A DNA stretch of 20,743 bases. Origin: Candidatus Bathyarchaeia archaeon. Lineage in GTDB: Archaea > Thermoproteota > Bathyarchaeia > Bathyarchaeales > Bathycorpusculaceae. The notes under the pieces are model-generated. The model was not told where the DNA came from and searched no databases. It worked only from the letters and a program-made list of their open reading frames with translations. A program made the translations under genes and the position numbers. The number at the start of each line of letters is the position of its first letter. Within the stretch, counting starts at the first letter, position 1. The stretch is from positions 1 through 20,743 of the forward strand of contig JBMFOB010000022.1 in NCBI GenBank assembly GCA_049969855.1, written 5' to 3'. Positions 4,158-20,163 of this stretch are shown here, piece by piece.

Positions 4158-4200
4158 GGCGAAACCCCAAAGGCTTCTATAATATCATGGCTCAAGTTCG

Positions 4201-4241
4201 TTATATAATTGTTTCACCCCTTTCTATCGCTAAATTAATAT
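4201..4241. promoter_or_regulatory. Divergent promoter region between moaD and the flavin reductase
   Basis: TTATATAA at 4201-4208, preceded on the minus strand by GAAACAA (BRE-like), fits moaD. TAAATTAATAT at 4231-4241 lies about 45 nt before ATG 4286. Confidence 0.5.
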
Positions 4242-4285
4242 TGATTACACCACTAATGTTTCATGCCTTTAGGAAGTTTGTGAAA

Positions 4286-4816
4286 ATGAAAGAGGAAGTT
4301 CCAGTTTCCGAAGGGTTAAGCCAGTTCCCAATTAGACCAGTTTATTTAGTTTCAACAGAGCATAAAGGCAAAAAGAACATTATAACCGTCGGCATGTTCG
4401 CCTTCTTCTCCGGAAAACCAACATTGGTTGGTGTGGGCATTGCTCCTACGAGATACTCATTTGAATTAATTCGCCAAAGTAAAGAGTACGTAGTTAACGC
4501 TGTTGACGAGAATCTTATTGAGGCTACGCGGATTTGTGGGGAAAAATCAGGGCGAGAAGTGGACAAATTTGAACTGGCGAAGCTTACTCCAGAAAAGGGA
4601 ACCAAAGTAAATGCGCCCCTCATCAAAGAGAGTCCCGTTAGCATTGAATGTAAGGTTGTTAAAGAAGTTGAAATCGGCGACCACGTTTGGTTTATAGGCG
4701 AAGTGCTCGCTGCTCATGTTCGCAAAGGATACAAGTGGAGTGAGGGTTTACTGTTTAAGTGGATAGGTGAAGACGGCTTCTTTTACAAAGTGGGAAAAGA
4801 AATAGGCAAATACTAA
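4286..4816 (+). CDS. Flavin reductase-like FMN-binding split-barrel protein (flavoredoxin/DIM6-NTAB family)
   Basis: PVYLVS, NIIT, RYSFELI, CGEKSGREVDKF, PLIKES..IEC and GDH.WFIGEV motifs. ATG 4286 is preferred because the longer ORF from 4187 crosses the divergent promoter. Confidence 0.88.
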   Translation: MKEEVPVSEGLSQFPIRPVYLVSTEHKGKKNIITVGMFAFFSGKPTLVGVGIAPTRYSFELIRQSKEYVVNAVDENLIEATRICGEKSGREVDKFELAKLTPEKGTKVNAPLIKESPVSIECKVVKEVEIGDHVWFIGEVLAAHVRKGYKWSEGLLFKWIGEDGFFYKVGKEIGKY

Positions 4817-4840
4817 ACGCATTTTACTGAGAGATAACGC

Positions 4841-5275
4841 TTGGATTTTGAATATCCCAAAAATGTTCGTTTCATATGCAAGAAATGTGCCATATGCTGC
4901 GGCGACACCAAGGAAAAGGTTAGGTTCATTCTTCTCTTAAAGAAAGAGGCTGAACGCATAGCAAAGAAAACTCTAAAAGATATTGAGGAGTTCGCTGAAA
5001 AAGTTGAAGACACACAGCTTTACGTTTACCAGATGAGAAAAACTGCTGAAGGAAAATGTGTATTCCTTAAAGACGGTTTATGCTCAATTTACCAGATAAG
5101 ACCGTTAATATGCAAATTCTATCCATTCCAACTTAACAATAAAAATGGCAGATTCGAATTCGCATACACAACTGAATGCCCAAACATTGGTAAAGGCCCA
5201 AAATTGAAAAAGAAGTTTTTTGAAAAGCTCCTTAGAGAATTCGTAAGAATTATGGAAGAGAACGCTTCTCATTGA
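4841..5275 (+). CDS. YkgJ/UPF0153 CxxCxxCC cysteine-cluster protein (putative Zn/Fe-S binding)
   Basis: [25 protein letters not shown] and a later CP. TTG start. Confidence 0.88.
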
Positions 5276-5321
5276 CAATTCTTTTATGTTTCTCAAACAG
5301 TCTAGTTTTAGGGTGTCTTCA

Positions 5322-7004
5322 ATGTTGTTTGACAAGCAGACGCTGGAGGAGATTCGTAAAAGGAAAAAGGAATGGGAGAAAGAAACTGTATCAAAGAGTT
5401 TGGAAAAGCTTCCGGAAAAAGCTGAATTCTCAACAAGTTCTGACATTCCCATAAATAGGGTTTACACGCCAGTTGACATTGAAAAGCTTGACTATTTAGA
5501 AGATTTAGGTTTTCCAGGGGAATATCCCTTCACCCGCGGCGTTTATCCAACAATGTACCGTGCTAGATTATGGACTATGAGGCAATATGCAGGCTTCGGA
5601 ACGGCTGAACAAACGAATCAACGCTTTAAATATCTGTTACAGCAGGGACAAAGGGGCTTAAGCGTGGCTTTTGACTTTCCAACACAAGTTGGTTATGACT
5701 GCGACCATCCCATGGCACGTGGCGAAGTTGGAAGGGCTGGCGTAAGTGTTAGCACTTTAAGGGATATGGAAATCGTCTTTGATGGAATTCCCTTAAAGGA
5801 AATCACGACCTCTATGACTATTAATGCTCCAGCAACAGTTTTGCTTGCCATGTATGTTGCTGTTGGACAAAAACAGGGTGCTGAACCATCTCAGTTGGGT
5901 GGAACAGTGCAGAATGACATTTTGAAGGAATATGCAGCCAGAGGCATGTACATTTTTCCACCTAAACCATCCATGAGGCTAGTAACAGACATATTCGAGT
6001 ACTGCTCTCAACACATGCCACAATGGAACACTATAAGCATAAGCGGCTACCACATTCGCGAGGCTGGAGCAACAGCCGTTCAAGAAGTAGCCTTCACATT
6101 AGCAAACGCCATCGCCTACGTGCAAGCAGCCATCGACAGAGGTTTAGATTTGGACAAATTCGCAGGCAGATTATCCTTCTTCTTTGCGTCCCACAACAAC
6201 TTCTTCGAAGAAATTGCCAAATTCAGAGCTGCAAGAAGGCTATGGGCTAAAATAATGCGGGAACGCTTCAAAGCAAAAAATCCAGCCTCATGGATGTTAC
6301 GTTTCCACACTCAAACTTCTGGGGTTTCCCTCACAGCCCAACAACCATACAACAATATTGTGAGGGTTGCTCTTCAAGCTTTGGCTGCTGTTTTAGGTGG
6401 AACCCAATCTTTGCATACAAACTCTTTTGATGAAGCTTATGCCTTGCCAAGCGAACAAGCCGTCACAGTAGCGCTTAGAACTCAACAGATAATAGCTTAC
6501 GAAAGCGGAGTAGCCGAAACCATAGACCCAATTGCAGGCTCATACTATGTGGAGTACTTGACAAGTCAGATAGAAGAGAAAGCAGCAAAATACATTGAAC
6601 AAATTGACGAAATGGGAGGAGCCGTTGCCGCCATCGAAAAGGGTTTCATGCAACGAGAAATTGTAGAAAGCGCCTACCGCTTTCAAAGAGAAGTGGAAGC
6701 AAAAAAGCGCATAATTGTTGGAGTAAACGAGTTTATAACAGAGGAAGAGGTACCGATAAAAATTTTGCAGATAGACCCTGAAATAGAGAAAAAGCTTGTA
6801 GAACGCCTAAAACAGATAAAACAGCAGAGAAACCAAACAAAAGTTAAAGAAATGCTAGACAAATTACGCTTGGCTGCTGAAAAAGAAAATGCGAATCTCA
6901 TGCCATTCATAATTCAAGCAGTAAAAGAATACGCCACCATAGGAGAAATCTGCGACACCTTGCGGGAGGTTTTCGGAGAATATAAGCCACCTTCCATCTT
7001 CTAA
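5322..7004 (+). CDS. mcmA: Methylmalonyl-CoA mutase, large (substrate-binding) subunit
   Basis: [55 protein letters not shown] and GGTQSLHTN. No DxHxxG B12-binding domain. ATG 5322 follows a GGGTG RBS; the ORF track starts at 5286. Confidence 0.95.
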
Positions 7005-7555
7005 ACAATAATAAATAGGGCTTCGCCTTCGCTTACCGAAGAACCCTCAGAAACAAGTATTTCCTGAACTGTGCCGCTTTTAGGAGCTGCAACTTCATTT
7101 TCCATTTTCATGGCTTCCAGAATACAAAGAACCTGTCCGGCTTTCACCTGTTCTCCCTTTTTGACTTTTATGGAAAGAATTTTTCCAGTCATGGGCGCAG
7201 CCACAGCACCTTCCACTGCTGGCTTGGGTTCCGCTGGTCTTTTTGCAGGCGCTACTGTAGTGGGTTCAAAAGTTGCTAATGCAAGTTTTCTCATTGACGT
7301 TTTTACTTCCGCCTTGAAAACTGCTTCTTCAACTTTAACCGAAAAAGGCTCTTCCCTCTTGAGTTCTGGCAAATTTACCTGATACTTTTTGCCATCGATA
7401 TTTATGAAGAAACCTTTTTCTAATTCAAGCTTTTCAGTTTCTAACTCCACTTTTAAAGGCTTTCCGTCCACTTTGACTTCGAAAGTGTTCTCTCCAGTTT
7501 TTGTCAACTCGATTTTTCGTGGTTTGCCGTCAATAAAAACTTCGTAAACTGGCAT
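7001..7555 (-). CDS. Biotin carboxyl carrier protein (transcarboxylase 1.3S/MmdC-like) with extended N-terminus
   Basis: APMTGKI...[11 protein letters not shown] biotinylation motif, a Pro/Ala linker and N-terminal repeated xDGK hairpins. ATG 7555 lies 1 nt after the upstream stop. Confidence 0.92.
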
Positions 7556-7556
7556 T

Positions 7557-9101
7557 TTACACACCATATTCTGCTAAGCTTTTTCGTCCAGTCAAAACCC
7601 AAGCAGACATTGTGCCCCTTGCTCGTAGAGGTATTAGTGCTTTGGTTTTTCCCAAACTTTTAATGTAGGCGGCAACAGCCACAGAAACTGCGGCAACATC
7701 CTCCAGTTCTGCGATTTTGTCAGGTGAAATTTCAGTTTTGGCTTCTTCTTTTTTGGCTTTTCTTTTTTTAAAGAATTCTAAGGCCACTTGTGGAAAAAGC
7801 GCATATGTTATCTTATCCTCTTCACTTTCAATGTATGGTTTTACTTCTTCAGGTATTTTGTCAAGGGCGCTTTCTAATAGGTCTGCTGGACGGCAAGTTA
7901 TTGGTTCCTCATCGCCTATTATCTTCTTTTTAACCTTAGGATTGATGGGGGCTGGCGGTTTTCCATACAAGCCCTTCACATAATCTTTTATCTCTTTTGG
8001 CACTATGCTGTAGCGTTTACCAGAAATAACATTAAAAACGGCTTGAATACCCACAAGCTGACTTGTAGGCGTTACTAATGGAGGATAACCCAACTCTTTT
8101 CTAACCCTCGGAACCTCTTCAAGAACCTCCTTAAGCCTATCAAGCGCTTTTTGTTCCCTCAATTGCTCGAGAAGGTTGGAGAACATTCCGCCTGGAATTT
8201 GATGTACAATAATGGATGGATCAACCTGTTCAGCTTTTTTGTCTATAAGCTTTAATGGGTCATAATATTTCTCTCGCAGTTCTCTGAAGTAAGATGCAAT
8301 TTCGCTTAAAAGTTCCAAATCAAGTCCAGGATCGTATGGCGTTCCTTTTAAGGCGGCTACTATCGATTCTACTGGCGGCTGCGATGTACCCCAAGCAAAA
8401 GGTGAAAAGGCCGTGTCAATTATGTCCACTCCAGCTTCACATGCTCGAAGATATGTCATCATAACCATGCCGCTTGTGCTGTGACTGTGCAAGTGTACGG
8501 GTAGGCTTATCTCCTCTTTTAGCACTGTTATAAGCTCATAAGCTGGTTGTGGCGCAAGCATTCCAGCCATGTCTTTTATGCATATGGAATCACAATCAAG
8601 TTCAGCCAATTCTTTGGCAACTTTAACATAGTACTTTATTGTGTGGACTGGGCTTATAGTGTAGCATATTGTTCCCTGCGCATGCTTGCCAACTTTTTTA
8701 ATAGTTTTTATTGCCACTTCCATGTTTCTTACATCGTTTAAAGCATCAAAAACTCGAAAGATGTCTATGCCATTTTCAGCCGCCTTCTCAACAAATTTTA
8801 TGAGAACATCGTCTGGATAATTGCGATAGCCAACAATATTTTGTCCCCGCAAAAGCATCTGAAGCGGCGTCCTTTTTATGTGGCGCTTTAGCTGGCGTAT
8901 TCTCTCCCAAGGGTCTTCGCCTAAATAGCGTATGCAAACGTCGAATGTGGCTCCTCCCCACATTTCCAAAGAGAAAAAGCCCACTTGGTCGATTTTTTCT
9001 GCTATGGGAAGCATGGCGTCAGTGCGCATTCTCGTAGCCATCAAAGACTGATGAGCGTCTCTAAATGTGGTGTCGGTGATTTTAACTGGTTTCGAAGCCA
9101 T
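7557..9101 (-). CDS. Pyruvate/oxaloacetate carboxyltransferase (transcarboxylase 5S / PycB / OadA-like), without a biotinyl domain
   Basis: RDAHQS, WGGATFD, QMLLRG, CIKDMAG (carbamylated Lys), HLHSH, HQIPGGM and PPLVTPTSQ. No EAMKM in this polypeptide. Confidence 0.92.
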   Translation of the reverse strand: MASKPVKITDTTFRDAHQSLMATRMRTDAMLPIAEKIDQVGFFSLEMWGGATFDVCIRYLGEDPWERIRQLKRHIKRTPLQMLLRGQNIVGYRNYPDDVLIKFVEKAAENGIDIFRVFDALNDVRNMEVAIKTIKKVGKHAQGTICYTISPVHTIKYYVKVAKELAELDCDSICIKDMAGMLAPQPAYELITVLKEEISLPVHLHSHSTSGMVMMTYLRACEAGVDIIDTAFSPFAWGTSQPPVESIVAALKGTPYDPGLDLELLSEIASYFRELREKYYDPLKLIDKKAEQVDPSIIVHQIPGGMFSNLLEQLREQKALDRLKEVLEEVPRVRKELGYPPLVTPTSQLVGIQAVFNVISGKRYSIVPKEIKDYVKGLYGKPPAPINPKVKKKIIGDEEPITCRPADLLESALDKIPEEVKPYIESEEDKITYALFPQVALEFFKKRKAKKEEAKTEISPDKIAELEDVAAVSVAVAAYIKSLGKTKALIPLRARGTMSAWVLTGRKSLAEYGV

Positions 9102-9159: not shown

Positions 9160-10728
9160 CTATAATGGTATGTTTCCGTGTTTTCTGGATGGTCTAGGCT
9201 CGCGTTTTGTGATTAGGCTTTCTAAGGCGCTGATAAGTTTTGGTCTTGTTTCTGCTGGTTCGATTACTTCGTCTATGTAGCCTTTCTGGGCTGCAACGTA
9301 TGGGTTTGCAAATTTTTGGCGATACTCGCTTACAAGTTCCATTCGCTTTTGTTCTGGATTTTCTGCTTCGGCTATTTCCTTTCTGAATATTATGTTTATG
9401 GCGCCTTGAGGTCCCATCACGGCTATTTCGGCTGTTGGCCAAGCATAGTTTATGTCTGCGCCTGAATGTTTAGAGCCCATGACGTCGTATGCTCCGCCAT
9501 AGGATTTGCGTAATATGGTGGTGATTTTTGGCACTGTTGCTTCGCAATAAGCGTATAAAAGTTTTGAACCATGCTTTATTATGCCGCCGTGCTCTTGCTC
9601 AAGACCGGGCAAGAAGCCTGGCACGTCTACGAATGTTATTATTGGAATGTTGAAGCAGTCGCAGAAACGTATGAATCGTCCTGCTTTCATGCTGCTGTTT
9701 ATGTCTAGGGCTCCAGCATAATGCAATGGTTGATTCGCCACTATGCCAACCGTCTTGCCATTTAACCTTGCAAAGCCTATAACAATGTTCTGCGCCCACA
9801 AGGGCTGAATTTCAAAGAACTCGCCATTATCAACCACACGAGTAATAATCTCCTTAACATCATAAGGTTTGTCTGGATCGTCTGGAAGAATCCTCGCCAA
9901 ATCTTCATCAGTGCGGTCTGGGTTATCTGTGGACTCTACTGCTGGCGGGTCTTCAAGATAATTGCTTGGCAGATAACTCAAAAGTTTCTTTATAATTTGA
10001 ATGCAATGCTCTTCGTTTTGGGCTATGAAATGGGCTACGCCGCTGGTTGTGCTATGCACCATAGCGCCGCCTAATTCTTCAAAAGTAACCTCTTGTCCCA
10101 AAGCAGCTTTAACCACGTCTGGACCAGTGATAAACATGTGACTTGTCTTGTCAACCATGATTATGAAGTCGGTTAGTGCAGGCGAATAGACGGCTCCGCC
10201 AGCGCATGGTCCCATTATAGCGCTTATCTGTGGAATTACGCCTGAGCTTATGACGTTTCTGAAGAAAATGTCCCCATAACCAGCAAGGCTTGCCACACCT
10301 TCTTGTATGCGCGCTCCGCCACTGTCATTTAAGCCTATGACTGGCGCTCCAGCTTTTAGGGCTAAATCCATTATCTTGCAAACCTTTTTTGCAAACATCT
10401 CACCCAACGAACCGCCAAAAACAGTGAAGTCTTGGCTGAAAACGTAAACGAGTCTGCCGTCTATTGTGCCATAACCCGTAACAACGCCATCGCCAAGATA
10501 TTTGCGTTCTGCCATGCCAAATTCTGTGCACTGATGAACCACAAAACGGTCAAGCTCATTGAAACTGCCTGGATCAAGCAACAATTCAATGCGCTCTCGA
10601 GCTGTCAATTTACCCTTAGCATGTTGTTCCTCAATGCGCTTTTGTCCACCGCCAAGTTTTGCTTGCTCATTTAATTCCCGTAAACGCTTAACCTTCTCAT
10701 CAACACTAGGCTCTTTTGTAAAGACCAT
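9160..10728 (-). CDS. Acyl-CoA carboxyltransferase (methylmalonyl-CoA carboxyltransferase 12S / MmdA / PccB-like)
   Basis: [54 protein letters not shown] and C-terminal RKHGNIPL. Confidence 0.95.
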
Positions 10729-10791: not shown

Positions 10792-11589
10792 CTAAGTTTT
10801 CCATTCATTTATTTTAAGAGAAATATCTCCAACAAAAAAACGTTTCACTGTTCCATCTTCAAGCCTAACAACCAATGCTCCCTTATTATTAACGTCTAAA
10901 GCTAAGCCACAGAATCTTTCCGTTTCACCAGCGACTTCCACTGTTTTACCAAGAAAATCTGCATACTTTTTCCATTCCTTCAGAACCCAAGTGAAACCTT
11001 CTTTCAAAAACTTTTCATAAAGACTATCCAACTTTTCAAGCAACAATTTAAGCAGTTCTTCCAGCTTAACTTTTTTGCCCAACTCGCTTTCAAGTGATGT
11101 TGCAACAGTCTTCAGCTCTTCTGGAAACTCTTTTTTAACATTAACATTTGCGTTTATGCCTACGCCTATTATTACATAGTTAACTTTTCCACCTTTTGTC
11201 CTCATCTCGCTTAGTATTCCGCAAACCTTTCGACCGTTCACCAAAACATCGTTTGGCCACTTAGTCTCCGCATGCAATCCATATTTTTCATGCAAAACCT
11301 CTACAACTGCTAAGCCAGCCACAAATATGAGACCAACAGATTCTTTTACGGTGACTTTTGGCCTTAAAATAACGGAAAAATAGAGTCCGCCTTTTGACGA
11401 AAACCATTGTCTATCAAGTCTTCCTCGTCCAGCGGTTTGAGTTTCTGCTATGACAATGGTTCCTTCAGAAGCCCCGTAATTAGCCATTTCCTTAGCTAAG
11501 TCGTTTGTGGAACCAACCTCATGTAAGAACAGTATTTTTTTGCCAAGCTTTTTGGTTTGAAGGTTTTCTTGAATCTTATCTATTTTCAA
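10792..11589 (-). CDS. birA: Biotin-protein ligase (class I, no N-terminal HTH)
   Basis: STND, QTAGRGR, KWPND, KVCGIL and GIGIN motifs, with a C-terminal SH3-like domain. TTG start after GAGTGA. Confidence 0.95.
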   Translation of the reverse strand: MKIDKIQENLQTKKLGKKILFLHEVGSTNDLAKEMANYGASEGTIVIAETQTAGRGRLDRQWFSSKGGLYFSVILRPKVTVKESVGLIFVAGLAVVEVLHEKYGLHAETKWPNDVLVNGRKVCGILSEMRTKGGKVNYVIIGVGINANVNVKKEFPEELKTVATSLESELGKKVKLEELLKLLLEKLDSLYEKFLKEGFTWVLKEWKKYADFLGKTVEVAGETERFCGLALDVNNKGALVVRLEDGTVKRFFVGDISLKINEWKT

Positions 11590-11838: not shown

Positions 11839-12240
11839 TTACCTCATAACAAGCTCCAGAAGAACGCCTTTTGTGCTTTTTGGGTGAACAAAGGCAATTT
11901 TTGCGCCTTCAGCGCCAGCTCTAGGCTTATCGTCAACCAAAACCACGCCTTTACGCTTAAAATCCTCAAGCACAGCGTTAATGTTTTCAACTTTTACAGC
12001 GATATGGTGGATGCCTTCGCCTCGATTTTCAAGAAACTTTGCAACTGGACTGTCGCTGCCTAAGGGCTCTAAAAGCTCAATTCGGGTTTCGCCACCGCTG
12101 GAGAGAAAAGCAACTTTAACCTTCCTCTCACTTAAAACATGGATACCCTCAAGCTTAAAACCCAAAACATTCTTGTAAATGCCAATTGCCTCATCCAAAT
12201 TTTTTACAGCAACACCAACATGGTCAATACCTGTAAGCAT
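11839..12240 (-). CDS. mce: Methylmalonyl-CoA epimerase (VOC family)
   Basis: [25 protein letters not shown] and [17 protein letters not shown] 12240 follows GAGGTGA. Confidence 0.95.
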
Positions 12241-12286
12241 ACATGCTTCACCTCTCACAGAGTTTTAAATGCCATGTTAAACACAT

Positions 12287-12405: not shown

Positions 12406-14115
12406 GTGAACATGTTGGAGAAATATGTCCACGACATAATTATTATTGGAGCTGGCTTGGCTGGTCTTAGGGCTGCAATTGCAGCGGCTGAAGTTAGCAA
12501 CAAACTTGACATAGCCGTAATATCAAAACTTCATCCACTCCGCTCACATTCTGTCTGTGCTCAAGGCGGAACGGCTGCAGTAATGCGGGAAAAAGATTCT
12601 TATGATTTGCATGCTTTCGACACCATTAAAGGCGCTGATTATTTAGCCGACCAAGATATTGTTGAATTTTTTGTGAGACGAGCACCAAGAGAGATAGTTT
12701 TAACAGAACATTGGGGATGCCCATGGAGCCGCACATCCGATGGAAAAATAGACCAACGCCCTTTTGGAGGCCACACTTATCCGAGGGCTTGTTTTGCGGC
12801 GGACATGACTGGTTTTCATGAAATGCACACATTGTATGGAAAAGCCTCCTCATATGACAACATTAAATTTTATGATGAATGGTTCGCCACATCTCTAATG
12901 GTTGAAGACAAAACAGCAGTTGGCTTAACAGCTATAGAATTGAAAACTGGCAAGATACATGCCTTCCAAGCAAAAGCCATTGTGATTGCAACTGGAGGTC
13001 ACGAGCGCATATACGAATTCACAACTTTCTCTTACACAACCACTGGTGATGGGATGGCTATGGCTTACCGTGCTGGGGCTCCATTAATGGATATGGAATT
13101 TGTCCAATTTCACCCCACTGGTTTAGTACCATCTGGCGCATTAATAACTGAAGGAGCCCGAGGTGAAGGCGGATACTTAATTAACGCTCAAGGCGAACGT
13201 TTCATGAAACGTTACGCTCCAGAAAAAATGGAGTTAGCCCCCAGAGATGTGGTTTCAAGGGCTGAACAAACAGAAATTAACGAAGGCCGAGGACTGGAAG
13301 GACCTTATGGGTCTTACATAGCATTAGACCTGAGGCATTTAGGTGAGGAAAAAATAAACGAGAGATTGCCGCTTATTCGGGAAGTTGCCATAAAACTTAG
13401 CGGAGTAGACCCCGTCAAAGAGCCTATTCCAATAAGGCCGGCAGCCCACTATTCCATGGGTGGAATAAAGGCTAACATAAAAACTGAAACGCCAATTAAA
13501 GGGTTATACGCTGCTGGTGAATGCTCCTGTCTAAGCCTTCATGGAGCAAATAGGCTTGGCACAAACTCAACAGCAGAATGCCTTGTTTTTGGAGCAGTTG
13601 CTGGAGAAGAGGCTGCTAAACATGCCTTATCAAACAGCATAAAAGAACTATCCCATGAAAAAGTTCTAGCAGAGGAAAAGAGGGTTTTTGATGGAATTTT
13701 GGGCAGCGAAGGCGGCGAAAGGGTTTCAGTTATAAGAGATGAGATGAGGCGTATAATGAAAGAGAAAGTTTGGATATTCAGAAGAGGCGACCAACTTGAA
13801 AGCGCCTTGAAAGAGATAAGGGCGCTCAAAGAAAGGTTCAGACACATAAAGGTGCAAGACAAGGGCGGTCCGTTCAATACTGGTTTGGTGGATGCTTTGC
13901 AGCTTGACTTCATGCTGGAGCTTGCAGAAGTCACCATAGTGAGTGCACTTCCAAGGACCGAGTCCCGTGGAGCCCACTCAAGAATTGACTATCCGAAACG
14001 GGATGATGTAAACTGGTTAAAGCATACGCTGGCATACTACACAAAGGAAGGCCCAAGGCTTGAGTACATTCCTGTAACGATAACTAAGTGGCAGCCAGCA
14101 GCGAGAACGTATTAG
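12406..14115 (+). CDS. sdhA: Succinate dehydrogenase/fumarate reductase flavoprotein subunit
   Basis: [16 protein letters not shown] (covalent-FAD His), [41 protein letters not shown] and ESRGAH. The exact start could be 12406, 12412 or 12415. Confidence 0.95.
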
Positions 14116-14127
14116 GAGGTTGAATGC

Positions 14128-15693
14128 ATGAACTCTAAAGTGGAGAAAATTGTTGAGTTTAGGATAAACCGTTTTGACCCTCAAAATAAAAGGCATTATG
14201 TATCCACGTATAAGGTGCCGATTCGTAAGGGAACAAGCATCCTTGAAGCCCTCCAGTATATTAGGGATAATCTTGATGAGACGCTTTCTTTTAGGCATTC
14301 TTGTAGGATGGGCATCTGCGGAAGCTGCGGAATTAACGTTAACGGGCAACCCATGCTGGCATGTTATACTCAAGTTCTTGACCTTGGAGTTGACACGTTA
14401 GAGTTGGCGCCTTTATCCAACATGCCAGTAATAAAAGACTTAATAGTTGACATTGAACCCTTCTTTGACACTTTTAAGAAAATTAAAAAGTTTCTAATAA
14501 AACCCGAAGCGGAACTTAACAAGCTTGTAGAATTCGTGCAGAATCCTTTAGACTTGAAGAAATATTGGGACCTTACGCTTTGCACGAAATGTTCAATTTG
14601 TTATTCCGCTTGTCCAGCAGCAATAGACCAGAAGTTCCTCGGGCCATCAACATTAACTGCTAACTATCGCTTCATAGCTGATTCTAGGGATGAAGGGTTG
14701 GATGAACGATTAAAGCCGATGGCAGACAACATCTGGCTTTGCACTTCATGCAATTCATGTACGCTGTTCTGTCCAAAACTTGTTAACTGTTCAAACGCCG
14801 TAATTGACGACCGCAGCCTCCTAGTTGAGTCTGGAGTTATACCGAGAACTGTTAAAGACGTTTTGGAAAGCGTAATCAAATATCATAACCCTATGGGAAC
14901 CCATCAAAGCAAGAGAATGGACTGGAGTAAAGGCTTTAATATCAAGACGTTTCCTGATGTGGCGAAGGCTGATGTTTTGTTTTTTGTTTGCTGTTCAACA
15001 GCCTATGATATGAGAAATCAGGAAATGGCTGAAGCAATGGCTTCAATATTGGATAAAATGGGCATTAACTATGCAACTTTAGGCTCTGAAGAATGGTGCT
15101 GCGGAGACCACATTCTCAGATTAGGCGAGAAGGGATTATTCGAAGAGCTTGCTGAACACAACATTGAATTGTTCAAAAAGTTCAATGCAGAAAAAATTGT
15201 GGTCCTATCGCCTCACTGCTATAATACTTTCAAGAACGATAAGCCCTATAAGGATGCGGGACTTAACGTTCAACATTACACGCAGTTTTTGGCTGAAGCC
15301 ATCGAAAAAGGCAAACTGAAAACTTCTAAAACCATAAAGAAAAAAGTCACATACCACGACCCATGCTTCCTCGGAAAACGCAACAACATATACGATGCAC
15401 CCAGACAAATCTTGCAGTCTATAAACGGCTTAGAACTTGTGGAAATGAAAAGGACAAGACAAAACAGCTTCTGCTGCGGCGGAGGCGCCGGAAGAGTTTG
15501 GACTGAAGAGGCAGTCCCAGAAAAGAGACCAAGCGTGGAAAGGCTTAAAGAAGCATTGGCATTAGACGTTGAAGTCATAGCTACGGCTTGCCCATTCTGC
15601 GTGACAACGTTAGAAGATGCCGTGAAAGTTTTGGATGTGGAAGGCAAGATAGTGGTGAAAGACATATTAGAACTCTTGAAAGATGCTGTGTAA
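14128..15693 (+). CDS. SdhB/FrdB iron-sulfur subunit fused to two CCG (HdrD/GlpC-like) domains; TfrB-like architecture
   Basis: [2Fe-2S] SCRMGICGSC...AC, then CTKCSICYSACP and CTSCNSCTLFCP. CCG domains: FVCC...WCCG...SPHC and YHDPC...FCCGGG...ACPFC. GGAGG RBS. Confidence 0.9.
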   Translation: MNSKVEKIVEFRINRFDPQNKRHYVSTYKVPIRKGTSILEALQYIRDNLDETLSFRHSCRMGICGSCGINVNGQPMLACYTQVLDLGVDTLELAPLSNMPVIKDLIVDIEPFFDTFKKIKKFLIKPEAELNKLVEFVQNPLDLKKYWDLTLCTKCSICYSACPAAIDQKFLGPSTLTANYRFIADSRDEGLDERLKPMADNIWLCTSCNSCTLFCPKLVNCSNAVIDDRSLLVESGVIPRTVKDVLESVIKYHNPMGTHQSKRMDWSKGFNIKTFPDVAKADVLFFVCCSTAYDMRNQEMAEAMASILDKMGINYATLGSEEWCCGDHILRLGEKGLFEELAEHNIELFKKFNAEKIVVLSPHCYNTFKNDKPYKDAGLNVQHYTQFLAEAIEKGKLKTSKTIKKKVTYHDPCFLGKRNNIYDAPRQILQSINGLELVEMKRTRQNSFCCGGGAGRVWTEEAVPEKRPSVERLKEALALDVEVIATACPFCVTTLEDAVKVLDVEGKIVVKDILELLKDAV

Positions 15694-15764: not shown

Positions 15765-17633
15765 TTGTACGGATATGCTGGAAGAGTACTCCACATAGAC
15801 CTAACAACAGGAAAAACCCATGTTGAACCATTAAATGAAGACTATGCCAAAAAATACATTGGCGGCATAGGCTTAGGAATGCGCCTCTGGCTTGACCACT
15901 CAAAAGCTGGAGTTGAACCCTTCAGTCCAGAAAACCCACTAATACTAACAACAGGACCAATTTCGGGTACGGTTTGGCCAACAGGCGGGAACGGCCACGC
16001 TTTCGTTTCAAAGTCGCCGCAAAGCTACGGAGTTGGGGAAGCAAAATCCCACGGCTCCTTTGGTACAGAACTGAAGAGGGCGGGATATGACGCCGTAATT
16101 TTTAAGGGCAAATCAGAAAAACCCGTTTACGTTTGGATTGACGACGACTCAGTGCAACTTTTAGACGCTTCACATTTGATGGGCAAATCTCCAGCAGAAA
16201 CAGAAGACACCATAAAAGAAGAGTTAGGCGACTATTACATCCGCGTGGCAGCCATTGGTCCAGCAGGCGAAAAACTCGTCAGAATCGCTTGTATAATCAA
16301 TGAAAAAACAAGGGCTGCTGGAAGAACAGGAATGGGCGCCGTCATGGGTTCAAAAAATCTTAAGGCAATTGCTGTTCGCGGAACACATGATGTTGCTGTG
16401 GCGAAACCTGATGAATTCATGGAGTTTGTTAAGGAATTTCATGAAAGAATGAAGGGGCCAGCCACACAAAAATACAGAACCTTAGGCACGCCGGAAAACG
16501 TTTTAGTCCACAATGCTTTGCACTGCATGCCTACAAGAAACTATAACAACGCACATTTTGAAGCAGCAGAAAGAGTAAGCGGAGAAACCTTGAATGAAAG
16601 ATTCGTTGCCAAAATCATAGGATGCAGCTCCTGCGCTATGCGATGTGAACACATTGCTGTTGTTCCCGAAGGACCATACAAAGGTGCAATGGCTCGGGTT
16701 GAATATGAACCGTTATGGGCTTTGGCACCCTACTGTGGAATAGACCGCCTTGACGCTGTAATTAAGGGAATAGAACTTTGCAATCATTATGGGATAGACG
16801 CTATAGGCGCTGGCGTTATAGTCGGCTTTGCCATGGACTGTTACGAAAATGGAATCTTAACACTGGAAGACCTTGATGGAATAGACGCCAGATTCGGCAA
16901 TCATGAAGCCCTAGTCAAACTTATAGAAAAAATGGGCAAACGTGAAGGGATAGGAGACATCCTTTCAGAAGGAGTGAAAATCGCCGCTGAAAAAATTGGA
17001 AAAGGAGCAGAAAAACTGGCACAACACATCAAAGGAGTAGAGGTTACCGGCTACGACCTCCGATCCCTAAAAACAGCTGCTTTAGGCTTTGCCGTTTCCT
17101 TCCGTGGAGCAGACCACAACAGACATGGAGCCTACGCCTTCGACGTGAAAGGAAAAGTCAACCGCTTAGTTGCTGAGAAGGGTAGAGGAAGAATGGTTAA
17201 AGACATCGAGGACATATACACCATTATCGACTCCCTAATAATTTGCAAATTCTCAAGGGGAACATACTACAAAGAAGCTGAAGATTTGGCTAAACTTTAC
17301 TCGTTAGTTACTGGATTTGAAACTACGCCAGAGGAGATTAGACGAAGCGGTGAGAGAATAAACAACGTCGCCAGATTATTCAATGTCAGAGAAGGACTCG
17401 GCAGAAAAGATGACACATTACCCTACAAGGTTATGCACCAGCCAATTCAGGACGAGGGACCGTCAAAAGGAGCTTATGTTTCACAAGAAGAACTTGACCT
17501 GTTATTGGATGATTATTATATGGCTCGTGGATGGAATAGGGAAGGTGTGCCAACAATAGAGAAGCTGAAAGAACTGGGTATGGACGACCTCATTTACATT
17601 GTTGAAGAGAAAACGAAAAAGACGGAGGAATAA
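15765..17633 (+). CDS. aor: Tungsten-containing aldehyde:ferredoxin oxidoreductase family protein
   Basis: MYGYAGRVL..DL, SKSP, IGPAGE, AAGRTGMGAVMGSKNLKA, CSSCAMRC, EYE, GID, RGADH, DSL.IC and DDTLP. TTG start after GGAGG. Confidence 0.93.
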   Translation: MYGYAGRVLHIDLTTGKTHVEPLNEDYAKKYIGGIGLGMRLWLDHSKAGVEPFSPENPLILTTGPISGTVWPTGGNGHAFVSKSPQSYGVGEAKSHGSFGTELKRAGYDAVIFKGKSEKPVYVWIDDDSVQLLDASHLMGKSPAETEDTIKEELGDYYIRVAAIGPAGEKLVRIACIINEKTRAAGRTGMGAVMGSKNLKAIAVRGTHDVAVAKPDEFMEFVKEFHERMKGPATQKYRTLGTPENVLVHNALHCMPTRNYNNAHFEAAERVSGETLNERFVAKIIGCSSCAMRCEHIAVVPEGPYKGAMARVEYEPLWALAPYCGIDRLDAVIKGIELCNHYGIDAIGAGVIVGFAMDCYENGILTLEDLDGIDARFGNHEALVKLIEKMGKREGIGDILSEGVKIAAEKIGKGAEKLAQHIKGVEVTGYDLRSLKTAALGFAVSFRGADHNRHGAYAFDVKGKVNRLVAEKGRGRMVKDIEDIYTIIDSLIICKFSRGTYYKEAEDLAKLYSLVTGFETTPEEIRRSGERINNVARLFNVREGLGRKDDTLPYKVMHQPIQDEGPSKGAYVSQEELDLLLDDYYMARGWNREGVPTIEKLKELGMDDLIYIVEEKTKKTEE

Positions 17634-18146
17634 ATGATGGTTAAAGTTCATGAAAGAAAATTTGTAACAGCCGACCCTGAAAAATGCGTTGGATGCCAAG
17701 TTTGCGAGTACATATGCTCATTTGAGAAAGAAAAAGTTTTCAACCCATTAAAATCAAGAATAAGAGTTGTGCGACTAAACCCGCTGGTAAACGTTTCCAT
17801 CGCCTGCAGACTCTGCGAAGACCCACCATGTGTCGCAGCATGCCCAAGAGATGCATTAACGCAGTCTGAGGAAACAGGCATAATAATGGTTGACGAAGAT
17901 AAGTGCAATGGTTGCGGATGGTGCATCGAAGCATGCGATTATGGGGCAATCATGATACATCCAGATAGGAAAGTCGTTTTTGTCTGTGACTTGTGCAAAG
18001 ATAAGGGTGAACCTCAATGCGTCAAATGGTGTCCAGAAGAAGCCTTAGACTTAGTTACAAGCGATGTCTTAGCCCAGAAGGCAAGAATTGCCGCCACAAA
18101 GAAACTTTTCAAAGAAGCCCTAAAGGCAACTCCAATAACTTCATAA
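17634..18146 (+). CDS. 4x[4Fe-4S] ferredoxin-like electron-transfer subunit (DmsB/HydN/AorA-like)
   Basis: 16 Cys in CVGCQVCEYIC, CRLCEDPPCVAACP, CNGCGWCIEAC and CDLC...CVKWCP. The ATG directly abuts the aor stop. Confidence 0.9.
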   Translation: MMVKVHERKFVTADPEKCVGCQVCEYICSFEKEKVFNPLKSRIRVVRLNPLVNVSIACRLCEDPPCVAACPRDALTQSEETGIIMVDEDKCNGCGWCIEACDYGAIMIHPDRKVVFVCDLCKDKGEPQCVKWCPEEALDLVTSDVLAQKARIAATKKLFKEALKATPITS

Positions 18147-18157: not shown

Positions 18158-18685
18158 CTAATTAATTTGCTTCAGAATTTGAATTAAAAGTTTGGCAATT
18201 TCTGCCGCTACCTTTGCAAGCTCAAGCGTTAATCCTTCTCCAAAATCAGCACTTTTTGGTTCTATGAGCAATAAGGCAATTTTGGCTCCCGTTGTCTTTG
18301 TCAAGTATTCACAAAATATTCGCAATGGAAGCATATGCGTAGAAAACGCAGGAAAACTTTTCAACTGTTCCGTTTGTACAAGCTTTGCATCGCTTGGTTT
18401 CAAACCTAAAAGTGCAGCATCTATTAGGAGAATATGCGTAGGGTTGAAATCTGTAATTTGTTGAATAAAACTTTCCGGAACGGTTTCACATTCTATTAGG
18501 TAAACTTTTTCAGAAACTCTTCCACGCAAATTTTGAACAATTTGGACCCCTACAAAATCGTCCATGCGAATAGGGTTTCCAATGCCAGCCACAACCACTC
18601 GCTTAGCATGAGAAAACCAAGTCTTCAATTCCTTTTCAAGACTGTATTTTTCGCTAGACACTGAAACTACCACGAAACAAATCAA
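18158..18685 (-). CDS. hycI: Hydrogenase maturation endopeptidase (HycI family)
   Basis: VAGIGNPIRMDDFVG, ETVPE, LIDAA and STHMLPL. Lies directly downstream of mvhA. The true start may be a few codons later. Confidence 0.9.
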   Translation of the reverse strand: MICFVVVSVSSEKYSLEKELKTWFSHAKRVVVAGIGNPIRMDDFVGVQIVQNLRGRVSEKVYLIECETVPESFIQQITDFNPTHILLIDAALLGLKPSDAKLVQTEQLKSFPAFSTHMLPLRIFCEYLTKTTGAKIALLLIEPKSADFGEGLTLELAKVAAEIAKLLIQILKQIN

Positions 18686-18708: not shown

Positions 18709-20163
18709 TTACCTTTGCACCGTTTTTAGAAGTTTCTTTTCCCTATTATAAATTTCAATGGTTAGTGGCATTTGTCCAACCGCAAAATGCGTGGCACATC
18801 CAAAGCATGGATCGTAAGCCCTAAAAGCCATCTCAACCATATTCAATATTCCCTGGTCAACTTTATCGCCATGAATTAAGCCTTTAGCAGCATTCCGAAT
18901 AGACATGTTTATGGATGGACTGTTGTTGACGGTCGCCACTATAAGGTTAACGTCTTTTATCAGCGCATTCTCATCCAAAACATAATGATGAATTAGGGTT
19001 CCCCTAGCCGCTTCAACAACCCCTATACCCTCTCCTGGTTCGCCGGGCTTGTTGCGGACATCTTTGCTTGTTATTTCAGGGTCTCTGCTTAATTCCAAAG
19101 CTCTTTCAGATGCATAAAGCAGTTCTATAAGTCTAGCCCAATGATAAGCAAGCGTTGAGTGGACTGGTTTTCCGCCAAGTGTTTTGTACATAAACTCATA
19201 TTCTTCTTGCGCTAGTGGCGTAGCCATGCCATCTGCAGCGTTAAATCTTCCAATGGGTCCAACACGATAGGCTCCGCTTTCTGGTCCATCGATAAAGCCT
19301 TTCCAGCCTATTTTCTTTAGGTATGGGAATTTGACGTAGGTCCATTCTTCAACATGCTCTGCAATGTAGTCGAGATAGTTTTTTGCTTCGAATTTCACGA
19401 ATTCCTTGCCGTTTGGGTCGACTACCCTAATTTTGCCGTCGTAAAAGTTCGCTTTGTTGTTTTCATCAACCAATCCCATATAGTAAGTCTTCAATGTATA
19501 GGCATCGCTTTTGATTAAGTCAACATACTTGCTGTTTCCAAGCACAATGTCACGGAAAAGCTTCAGCGAAAACTTTGCAAAATTCACAGAAGAAGAAGCC
19601 ATATTCTCAATTTCTTTTCTATCCTCTTCGCTTAATGGCTTGGAGATTCCGCCTGGTAATCCGCAGACTGGATGCGTGGCTTTTCCGCCAATTATCTCCG
19701 TTATTCTTTGTCCATAAGCCCTATGCTTTATGACCTCTTTGCCAATGTCTAATCCAGCCTTTTCAATGACGCCTATAATATTCCTTTTTTCAGGCGGAGC
19801 GTCTGGTCCAACTATAAAGTCTGGTCCGCCCAAATAGTAAAAGTGCAGCGTGTGATCGTAAATGAAGTAGCCGCAGTACATAAGTTCCCTAAGCTTTTTG
19901 GCTGCAGATGGTGGTTCAACATTGAATGCTGCATCTAAGGTTTTTGTTCCAGCCATGTGATGGGCTACTGGGCAAACACCGCATATCCTGCTTGTCAAAA
20001 GCGGCATGTCTTCAGCTTTTCTTCCAACGCAGAACCTTTCGAAGCCCCTAAGCTCTGGAATTTGCATGTAAGCATTTTCAACTTCCCCTTCGTCATTTAG
20101 GAATATGGCTATTTTCCCATGGCCTTCAAGTCTTGTTATTGGGTCGATAACAACTTTTTTCAT
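18709..20163 (-). CDS. mvhA: [NiFe]-hydrogenase large subunit, F420-non-reducing MvhA type (group 3c-like)
   Basis: IDPITRLEGHGK, ELRGFE, L1 RICGVC, EAARGTLIHHY and L2 RAYDPCFGCATH, followed by a cleavable C-terminal extension. Confidence 0.93.
   Translation of the reverse strand: MKKVVIDPITRLEGHGKIAIFLNDEGEVENAYMQIPELRGFERFCVGRKAEDMPLLTSRICGVCPVAHHMAGTKTLDAAFNVEPPSAAKKLRELMYCGYFIYDHTLHFYYLGGPDFIVGPDAPPEKRNIIGVIEKAGLDIGKEVIKHRAYGQRITEIIGGKATHPVCGLPGGISKPLSEEDRKEIENMASSSVNFAKFSLKLFRDIVLGNSKYVDLIKSDAYTLKTYYMGLVDENNKANFYDGKIRVVDPNGKEFVKFEAKNYLDYIAEHVEEWTYVKFPYLKKIGWKGFIDGPESGAYRVGPIGRFNAADGMATPLAQEEYEFMYKTLGGKPVHSTLAYHWARLIELLYASERALELSRDPEITSKDVRNKPGEPGEGIGVVEAARGTLIHHYVLDENALIKDVNLIVATVNNSPSINMSIRNAAKGLIHGDKVDQGILNMVEMAFRAYDPCFGCATHFAVGQMPLTIEIYNREKKLLKTVQR

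Follow-up and report, generated by a model that had tools for sequence, protein, structure and literature searches.

The question raised by this archaeal locus is which electron carrier serves a succinate dehydrogenase/fumarate reductase-type flavoprotein whose iron-sulfur subunit is fused to a module of heterodisulfide reductase (Hdr) type. The two genes, sdhA and the gene of a 521-aa SdhB-CCG-CCG protein, lie in a window that comprises an entire contig (C22, 20.7 kb) of a genome of 1.28 Mb, assembled in 49 contigs and 93% complete, and the nearest protein relatives are labelled Bathyarchaeia or Bathycorpusculaceae by the source databases. ORF calls as well as Pfam and NCBIfam matches confirmed the order sdhA, fused gene, aor that an earlier note on this DNA had described. 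Judged by its sequence, the fusion is well supported as a distinct family, which combines complex II with traits of thiol:fumarate reductase (Tfr) and of EtfD/EMO, the electron-transfer flavoprotein (ETF):(methyl)menaquinone oxidoreductases. We tentatively propose that the pair may be a soluble, thiol-independent ETF:fumarate oxidoreductase serving the C4/methylmalonyl-CoA branch. With somewhat more reserve, it might be the first member of an undescribed class, in which an SdhAB core carries a His-capped, ETF-docking EMO/EtfD module in place of the membrane anchor.

The N-terminal half of the fusion passed the cut-off of the SdhB subfamily NF004616 (236.1 bits vs 228), while the C-terminal half was HdrD-like by NCBIfam. 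The domains are listed in Table 1, with cluster types predicted from the Cys ligand motifs. In an alignment of 23 full-length relatives of the fusion (30–67% identity), the four Cys of the [2Fe-2S] domain and all eight Cys of the two CxxCxxCxxxCP motifs were invariant. The second of these motifs has one Cys more (C208), at a position that is Val or Ile in E. coli FrdB (‘CTFVGYC’) and mitochondrial SdhB (‘CHTIMNC’), thus the third cluster is predicted to be [4Fe-4S] at the position where complex II has [3Fe-4S]. The quinone-site residues of SdhB (‘SYWW’ and the His of ‘CH’, after the first Cys) are missing. CCG domain 1 reads S361-P-H363-C364, where TfrB-type proteins read C-A/P-G-C (CAGC or CPGC), and since S361 stands in place of the first Cys of the Hdr/Tfr CxxC, the CCG module has nine Cys, not ten. 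The AlphaFold2 model of the fusion reached a pLDDT of 90.1, and according to the model and a hydropathy scan, the protein contains no transmembrane segments, its sole hydrophobic stretches being two buried core elements.

The partner flavoprotein is of the respiratory type. SdhA consists of FAD_binding_2 (residues 10–388) and Succ_DH_flav_C (444–569) by Pfam, scored 891.7 bits on the SdhA/FrdA subfamily NF004724 (cut-off 826), and its top solved relative was E. coli FrdA (553 bits). In the alignment to the latter, the motifs HPTG, TEGxRGEGG, PRD, HYxMGG, and HGANRLG were all retained, and H48 fell on the covalent-FAD His of the RSHT motif, which bears out the earlier note's statement that this His is kept. 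The catalytic motifs and the covalent-FAD His are thus shared with SdhA/FrdA of the E. coli quinol:fumarate and succinate:quinone reductases; however, the His is also present in Bathyarchaeial TfrA and is no discriminator between the window enzyme and Tfr. A position occupied by Glu in E. coli FrdA is Gln in 13 of the 16 window-type SdhA read and in the top-ranked FrdA chain 2b76, and Glu in all three TfrA read; in E. coli complex II, the residue at this position reportedly biases the catalytic direction. With NF004724 and NF004616 both passed by their respective proteins and an HdrD-type module attached, the description of the enzyme as a hybrid held, and the hybrid is distinct from TfrAB.

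The closest solved relative of residues 200–510 of the fusion was Mycobacterium smegmatis EtfD (9ojn_A, E 7.8e-58); HdrC chains matched this part more weakly (E 2.6e-5 to 2.7e-4), and none of the HdrB chains came under 0.001. A Foldseek search with the AlphaFold2 model also returned 9ojn first (E 8.5e-26, 30% identity over 428 columns), with the HdrB chains far behind (E 6e-8 to 8e-6), so that EtfD/EMO is the top match of residues about 145–520 in both sequence and fold. S361-P-H363-C364 aligned with C581-P-H583-C584 of EtfD, placing H363 on His583 of EtfD (by HMMER) and on H534 of EMO, and the other Cys fell on EtfD ligands as well, those of CCG domain 2 on C637, C672, C673, C709, and C712. 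Structures of EtfD and EMO, both ETF:(methyl)menaquinone oxidoreductases, were solved in 2025–26 (PMC13083937; bioRxiv 10.64898/2026.08.18.745454). 9OJN represents the ETF:menaquinone oxidoreductase of M. smegmatis, in which the CCG domains bind a linear [3Fe-4S] cluster through Cys503, 538, 581, and 584 and a non-cubane [4Fe-4S] cluster through Cys637, 672, 673, 709, and 712 plus His583 (Courbon et al., EMBO J 2026, PMC13083937). The diagnostic EtfD/EMO-type His at position 363 implies that the thiol-binding iron, which is the CoM (coenzyme M) site in heterodisulfide reductase, would be blocked. In the EMO:EtfAB structure of S. aciditrophicus, EtfB contacts the cytoplasmic domain, and the FAD lies 12–13 Å from both non-cubane clusters (bioRxiv 10.64898/2026.08.18.745454).

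Similar to the window fusion, EtfD/EMO have an HdrC-like 2x[4Fe-4S] domain and two CCG/NCB domains in one chain, a P-H motif whose His caps the proximal non-cubane cluster, and fewer than five Cys at the distal cluster. They differ in their N-terminal part, which is a heme-b membrane domain reducing (methyl)menaquinone, while the fusion has an SdhB-type [2Fe-2S] domain coupling to SdhA; the acceptor is menaquinone in EtfD/EMO, and the acceptor proposed for the window enzyme is fumarate. A survey of the 150 best representatives plus the window genome's own HdrB and HdrD-like proteins showed that the EtfD/EMO-type His is present in 124 of the 128 rows without a fusion and, among the 25 full-length fusions, in 15. 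The ten fusions without it were of the CxxC (TfrB) type and included all three that pass the TfrB cut-off. The distal site of the 17 window-type Bathyarchaeial proteins always offered four Cys, as CC + SPHC in 15 of them and as CS + CPHC, the pattern of M. smegmatis EtfD, in those of G062 and G118 (L120:9733-11304, L121:2933-4498). The corresponding set is CC + SxxC in the 15 proteins, CT + CxxC in EtfD, and CPHG in EMO, while the true Bathyarchaeial TfrB proteins had five distal Cys in four of four cases. We take this covariation to reflect selection for four ligands at the distal cluster. A complex prediction of EtfA and EtfB with residues 140–521 of the fusion gave neither support nor counter-evidence and was not used either way.

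The likeness to TfrAB, which was the starting point of the earlier note, was confirmed as far as the layout is concerned. TfrAB also consists of two soluble subunits without an anchor, TfrB has the same domain order ([2Fe-2S], 2x[4Fe-4S], two CCG) and four Cys in the second cluster motif, and residues 7–520 of the fusion aligned end to end with positions 2–487 of the 488 positions of the TfrB model NF004898. However, both subunits stayed under the Tfr cut-offs (fusion, 323.5 bits vs 385 on NF004898; SdhA, 509.3 bits vs 718 on the TfrA model NF004900), SdhA belongs to the NF004724 subfamily, and unlike the TfrB-type fusions, which have Gly, Ser or Cys at the site of H363, the window fusion reads SPHC instead of CAGC/CPGC and falls into a separate clade. 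True TfrAB was found in four of 151 sampled Bathyarchaeia (G122, G119, G073, G037). Their TfrB proteins were 28–29% identical to the window fusion by BLASTP (30–32% in the genome survey) and scored 502–541 bits on NF004898 in the three genomes scanned; of the partner TfrA, two reached 708 and 735 bits, and no NCBIfam family matched the remaining one at E ≤ 1e-120. In a search of 1.84 billion proteins, only three of the 25 full-length or near-full-length fusion representatives passed the TfrB cut-off. Heim et al. reportedly described in 1998 two complete CXnCCXnCXXC motifs, making ten Cys for two catalytic non-cubane clusters. Kosian et al. (2026, bioRxiv 10.64898/2026.08.18.745454) state ‘10 cysteine residues’ for HDR, place TfrB among the catalytic NCB enzymes, and list archaeal Sdh as linked to quinone.

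The homologue search listed 120 clusters (90% identity) with 74–94% identity, 117 of which were 520–524 aa and three 514–517 aa long. The fused gene thus recurs full-length in more than 100 Bathyarchaeial clusters, and its constant length across many assemblies rules out an assembly artefact, a possibility the earlier note had wished to see checked. Among the 151 sampled Bathyarchaeia, 18 had a full-length fusion and two more a copy cut by contig ends; these 20 genomes span nine families, relatives among them not being independent. A pattern-based locus search gave full-length fusions in two of 80 loci (L004, L006), and the rest were mostly bacterial HdrD/EMO-like. L004 (DASPTR010000183.1), a 4.9-kb contig labelled ‘Candidatus Acidoferrum sp.’, contains sdhA, a fused sdhB-CCG gene (73% identical), AOR (aldehyde:ferredoxin oxidoreductase), and two FeS genes, and it is probably a mis-binned Bathyarchaeial contig. 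In a FastTree of the HdrD-like part (147 rows, unrooted, no named methanogen TfrB), nine of the ten CxxC-type fusions grouped in a single clade (support 98), a short HdrD-like protein neighboured the window protein and its closest representative (support 100), and the remaining P-H fusions were scattered among stand-alone HdrD-like proteins. A metagenome-assembled genome of Methanomethylicia encodes homologues of 72% and 56% identity, with EtfAB 5–7 kb away. A second homologue search brought up MAGs labelled Bathyarchaeia or Nitrososphaeria only. In databases, the protein goes under ‘succinate dehydrogenase iron-sulfur subunit’ or ‘heterodisulfide reductase-related’. The literature searched contained nothing on the Bathyarchaeial fusion or on an ETF-dependent fumarate reductase; the supplementary NCB phylogeny of the EMO preprint and the supplement of PMC13083937 lay outside this search and may place such fusions.

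The intergenic gaps flanking the operon (147 bp and 71 bp) are too short for an anchor gene, the hydropathy scan of the free space around it revealed no multi-helix ORF, and Pfam Sdh_cyt had no match in the whole genome (at 93% completeness; control genomes matched, and the FrdC/FrdD families were not searched for). The lack of SdhC/D anchors stated in the earlier note was therefore borne out in the window and in the genome, and together with the lack of transmembrane segments it supports, as a prediction, the soluble and anchorless enzyme that was supposed there. Similarly, the search suggested there for com, mcr, and hdr genes found none of ComA, sulfopyruvate decarboxylase (the ComDE marker), and McrA in the 93%-complete genome (no specific marker of CoB synthesis was searched for), while hdrACB is present. 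MqnA/D were not found genome-wide, and there is only one UbiA-family gene.

A fusion was counted as window-type at ≥47% identity over the whole query, or at the same identity with a contig cut, and an EtfA orthologue at ≥53% identity, including one contig-cut copy at 76%. All 20 genomes with a window-type fusion had an EtfA orthologue (≥58% identity), none of the four with true TfrB had one (three of these gave no EtfA match whatever at E ≤ 1e-30), and among the 127 genomes with neither fusion it was found in 16; hence the EtfA-defined module occurs in 36 of the 151 genomes. A stand-alone HdrD-like protein was present in all 20 fusion genomes. Among the HdrD-like matches, those in G028:C15 and G031:C10 contained one TGA and two TAA in the aligned stretch, and the EtfA matches of several other genomes had single in-frame stops; these stops may reflect pseudogenes, sequencing errors or overlapping neighbour genes.

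Seventeen window-type loci were read, that of the window and 16 fetched ones, six of which lie on contigs shorter than 9 kb. In all of them sdhA adjoins the fusion. The genes hdrD-like-sdhA-sdhB/CCG are divergent from hdrA2-etfB-etfA in L119, L120, and L121, and the same genes lie 5–10 kb off in L122. Seven of the 17 loci have the alpha and beta genes of class I fumarase next to the pair, and one has malic enzyme there; methylmalonyl-CoA genes occur in two, and AOR + FeS + HycI + MvhAG (+ HdrB-like) neighbours in three, all close kin. Beside the fumarase-sdh cluster of G009, a 900-aa RadA/Rad51 gene split by an intein with a LAGLIDADG domain was also observed (L125:3814-6516).

The window genome encodes three CCG proteins: the fusion, HdrB (contig C4), and a 373-aa stand-alone HdrD-like protein with an EMO-like CPHG motif (contig C14). 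The latter is encoded in a row of genes (L002:3459-13880) for the HdrD-like protein, TrxR, a polyferredoxin/MvhD protein, NfnA- and NfnB-like proteins, and etfB-etfA, divergent from an HdrA2-MvhD fusion gene and an ADP-forming acyl-CoA synthetase. This arrangement resembles a soluble, EMO-like acceptor for ETF that is connected to a flavoprotein of HdrA type. The top solved relative of its EtfB was the AMP-binding ETF of Methylophilus (197 bits vs 121–146 for bifurcating ETFs), which suggests an ordinary non-bifurcating carrier. On C4 (L001:6751-15127), hdrA-hdrC-hdrB is directly followed by an acyl-CoA dehydrogenase gene, and 1–4 kb downstream there is a second paralogue of EtfA (39% identity) together with a FixC/GlpA-like FAD oxidoreductase.

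Both the partner and the direction of electron flow are inferred here from what the sequences show, namely architecture, motifs, family scores, co-occurrence, and synteny. On this basis, the enzyme could work as follows. The CCG module would be an electron port for a protein partner, not a thiol/disulfide catalyst, and the likeliest partner would be EtfAB of the organism itself; in EMO, this kind of module is the docking site of EtfAB. EtfAB, reduced by acyl-CoA dehydrogenases in the oxidation of amino acids or fatty acids, would dock on the NCB module, and the electrons would move through it to the two cubane [4Fe-4S] clusters, the [2Fe-2S] cluster, and the FAD of SdhA, predicted to be covalently bound beside the dicarboxylate site, and finally to fumarate. 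High-potential electrons would thereby pass to fumarate with neither quinone nor thiol, and the succinate formed would enter the route of the adjacent methylmalonyl-CoA/transcarboxylase genes. The textbook potentials of enoyl-CoA/acyl-CoA (about −10 mV) and fumarate/succinate (about +33 mV) are matched, thus fumarate would be a fitting sink that requires no quinone or reverse redox loop. As ETF lies at almost the same potential as fumarate/succinate, the enzyme could also run in reverse.

Several observations weigh against an ETF:fumarate oxidoreductase. Co-occurrence counts over related genomes overstate independence, and HdrD-like and HdrA2 accompany the ETF module in every case, so that either of them could be the true partner. 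The etfAB genes are adjacent in only three or four of the 17 loci; in the window genome they are on another contig (C14), and within the window the operon has no ETF genes beside it, its neighbours being AOR and a hydrogenase of Mvh type. What is deduced from the His depends on two bacterial homologues of about 30% identity, and the domain-1 ligands match neither EtfD nor EMO exactly. In the tree, for which FastTree was the only program, 71 of the 144 inner branches were unresolved. Absence of markers from a 93%-complete genome is not proof of absence, and as Methanomethylicia, one of which has a homologue of 56% identity, are described as methanogens with CoM and CoB (coenzyme B), a thiol donor is possible for the family.

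The same Etf neighbourhood can be read differently, as part of a hard-wired Hdr-type complex, in which the CCG module would dock on the HdrD-like protein and/or HdrA2 (the fused HdrA-MvhD flavoprotein), fumarate/succinate would serve as the high-potential side of a flavin-based bifurcation or confurcation that also involves ferredoxin and either H2 or NAD(P)H, and ETF would be a mere neighbour. Such a complex would accord with the hdrD-like gene directly 5′ of sdhA on the same strand and the divergent hdrA2 in L119–L121, with the HdrD-like protein of all 20 fusion genomes, with the C14 row divergent from hdrA2, and with MvhAG adjoining the operon in the window and in two relatives, there with an HdrB-like gene; a non-catalytic His-capped module suits any protein partner. 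Nevertheless, no case is known of an NCB module handing electrons to another NCB module, EtfAB is the sole structurally documented partner of a His-type NCB module, and the HdrD-like/HdrA2/Etf module is also found in 16 sampled genomes that have no fusion and hence works alone. We consider the Hdr-type complex unlikely. Somewhat less likely still is a thiol:fumarate reductase, which would oxidize two thiols (CoM-SH/CoB-SH or another archaeal thiol) to a disulfide that is re-reduced by Hdr-like enzymes. A Tfr or Sdh was assumed in the reconstructions of Mcr-less archaea (PMC9635834, PMC9723716), and the full-length match to the TfrB model, the lack of a detectable anchor, the Methanomethylicia homologue, and the hdrACB, HdrD-like, and Mvh-type hydrogenase genes of the genome are consistent with it. 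Against it stand the sub-threshold TfrA and TfrB scores and the separate clade of true TfrAB in other Bathyarchaeia, H363 at the CoM-binding site of Hdr and the missing tenth Cys, the failure to find ComA, the ComDE marker, and McrA in the 93%-complete genome, and the Etf orthologues of the window-type genomes, which the true-TfrB genomes lack. The thiol/disulfide carrier put first by the earlier note was consequently disfavoured, while its fallback, another carrier not named there, was judged right, the evidence pointing to EtfAB. A monotopic, quinone-linked type E complex II, with the CCG module attached to the membrane and feeding a lipid-soluble carrier, appears very improbable. It could call on the flavoprotein of the respiratory SdhA/FrdA subfamily, on the nuoH/nuoI-like genes beside the operon in L123, and on the extra Cys that would make the third cluster [4Fe-4S], as type E enzymes have a four-Cys third cluster of this kind. 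However, MqnA/D were not found, there is a single UbiA-family gene, the quinone-site Trp and His of SdhB are missing, and there is no hydrophobic segment beyond the two buried core elements. In the Sulfolobales SdhABEF of type E, SdhE is a separate, HdrB-like protein, unlike the fused, HdrD/EMO-like CCG part of the window protein; the SdhE model NF042965 was not among the 25 families matched by the fusion at E ≤ 0.001, while the genome's HdrB matches it, and type E/SdhE membership was ruled out on these grounds (SdhF was not searched for). Complex II of types A–D has a membrane anchor, a [3Fe-4S] cluster, and a quinone site, while the window pair comes with no Sdh_cyt match and no quinone residues.

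The two genes of the pair are separated by 12 bases, and a GGAGG lies 8 bases 5′ of the second one. The AOR and 170-aa FeS genes downstream (Table 1) are possibly co-transcribed with the pair, and they are kept beside it in close kin only (L114, L116, L004).

Table 1. Genes and domains of the window (positions refer to the 20,743 nucleotides of the contig)
Feature	Position	Strand	Remarks
MCM large subunit	5286-7004	+	Pfam/NCBIfam
1.3S biotin carrier	7001-7567	-	Pfam/NCBIfam
5S	7557-9101	-	Pfam/NCBIfam
12S	9160-10728	-	Pfam/NCBIfam
BirA	10792-11589	-	Pfam/NCBIfam
Methylmalonyl-CoA epimerase	11839-12258	-	Pfam/NCBIfam
sdhA/frdA-type flavoprotein	12406..14115	+	569 aa, GTG start; alternative in-frame ATG at 12412
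Fused iron-sulfur subunit	14128..15693	+	521 aa; SdhB-like [2Fe-2S] + two 4-Cys [4Fe-4S] motifs + CCG/NCB module, EtfD/EMO type
[2Fe-2S] domain (predicted)	14158..14466	+	Pfam Fer2_3, residues 11-113, E 3.8e-35; ligands C59, C64, C67, C79
4Fe-4S dicluster domain (predicted)	14572..14778	+	Residues 149-217 (Pfam); two CxxCxxCxxxCP motifs, C152/155/158/162 and C205/208/211/215
CCG domain 1 (predicted distal cluster)	14974..15234	+	Four Cys ligands C289, C324, C325, C364
CCG domain 2 (predicted proximal non-cubane [4Fe-4S] cluster)	15346..15612	+	Full five-Cys set C413, C449, C450, C488, C491
Tungsten-type aldehyde:ferredoxin oxidoreductase (AOR)	15765-17633	+	Pfam/NCBIfam
Poly-[4Fe-4S] protein, AOR partner	17634-18146	+	170 aa; Pfam/NCBIfam
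HycI protease	18158-18685	-	Pfam/NCBIfam
MvhA/VhuA-like [NiFe] large subunit	18709-20163	-	VhuU-like C-terminus in MvhA
MvhG-like small subunit	from 20160, cut by contig end (20743)	-	Pfam/NCBIfam

In two relatives, an HdrB-like CCG protein is encoded 3′ of MvhG (L114:15760-19621; L116:7747-11643). The contigs of the window, L114, and L116 all stop at or just past the Mvh region, which suggests a repeated or hard-to-assemble hdr region. Directly 5′ of the gene of the large subunit of MCM (methylmalonyl-CoA mutase), a flavin-reductase-like protein (209 aa) and a CxxCxxCC-domain protein (144 aa) are encoded (4187-5275). The ORF 4841-5275 was considered as the B12-binding MCM subunit and ruled out, being the CxxCxxCC-domain protein, and no B12-binding small MCM subunit was found in the window.

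Biotin carboxylase and OadB were not found in the genome, so the biotin enzymes are read as a methylmalonyl-CoA:pyruvate transcarboxylase, and a Na+-pumping decarboxylase or a carboxylase was ruled out on the same grounds. A transcarboxylase would be unusual for an archaeon; in the relative G077, a biotin carboxylase gene lies beside the same genes (L115:12732-14267). By annotation, the window encodes most of a Wood-Werkman-type route, and the class I fumarase of the genome is on contig C7. MCM was present in 16 of the 20 fusion genomes and gave no match in G020, a genome with a listed completeness of 100%; an obligate tie of the fusion to the methylmalonyl-CoA pathway was thereby ruled out.

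The pair is relevant for a puzzle about substrates, as none is known for the Hdr-like CCG proteins of these archaea, CoM/CoB and Mcr being absent from most of their lineages. The default labels ‘succinate dehydrogenase’ and ‘thiol:fumarate reductase’ presume either quinone or thiol as the carrier, for neither of which a biosynthetic route is evident in this genome. If the CCG module is an ETF port, chemistry like that of fumarate respiration could proceed in the cytoplasm with no lipid carrier, and amino-acid and fatty-acid oxidation would be tied to the formation of succinate and propionate in these archaea. In that case P-H versus x-G in the first CCG, together with four versus five distal Cys, would provide an annotation signature that separates electron-transfer-type from thiol-type proteins. 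Run backwards, the enzyme would let succinate electrons enter the HdrA2-based confurcating module. If the proposal is true, quinone-free anaerobic archaea gain a direct sink for the electrons of acyl-CoA dehydrogenases, which are difficult to get rid of, and many ‘TfrAB’ and ‘SdhAB’ annotations in Mcr-less archaea would name the wrong electron carrier.

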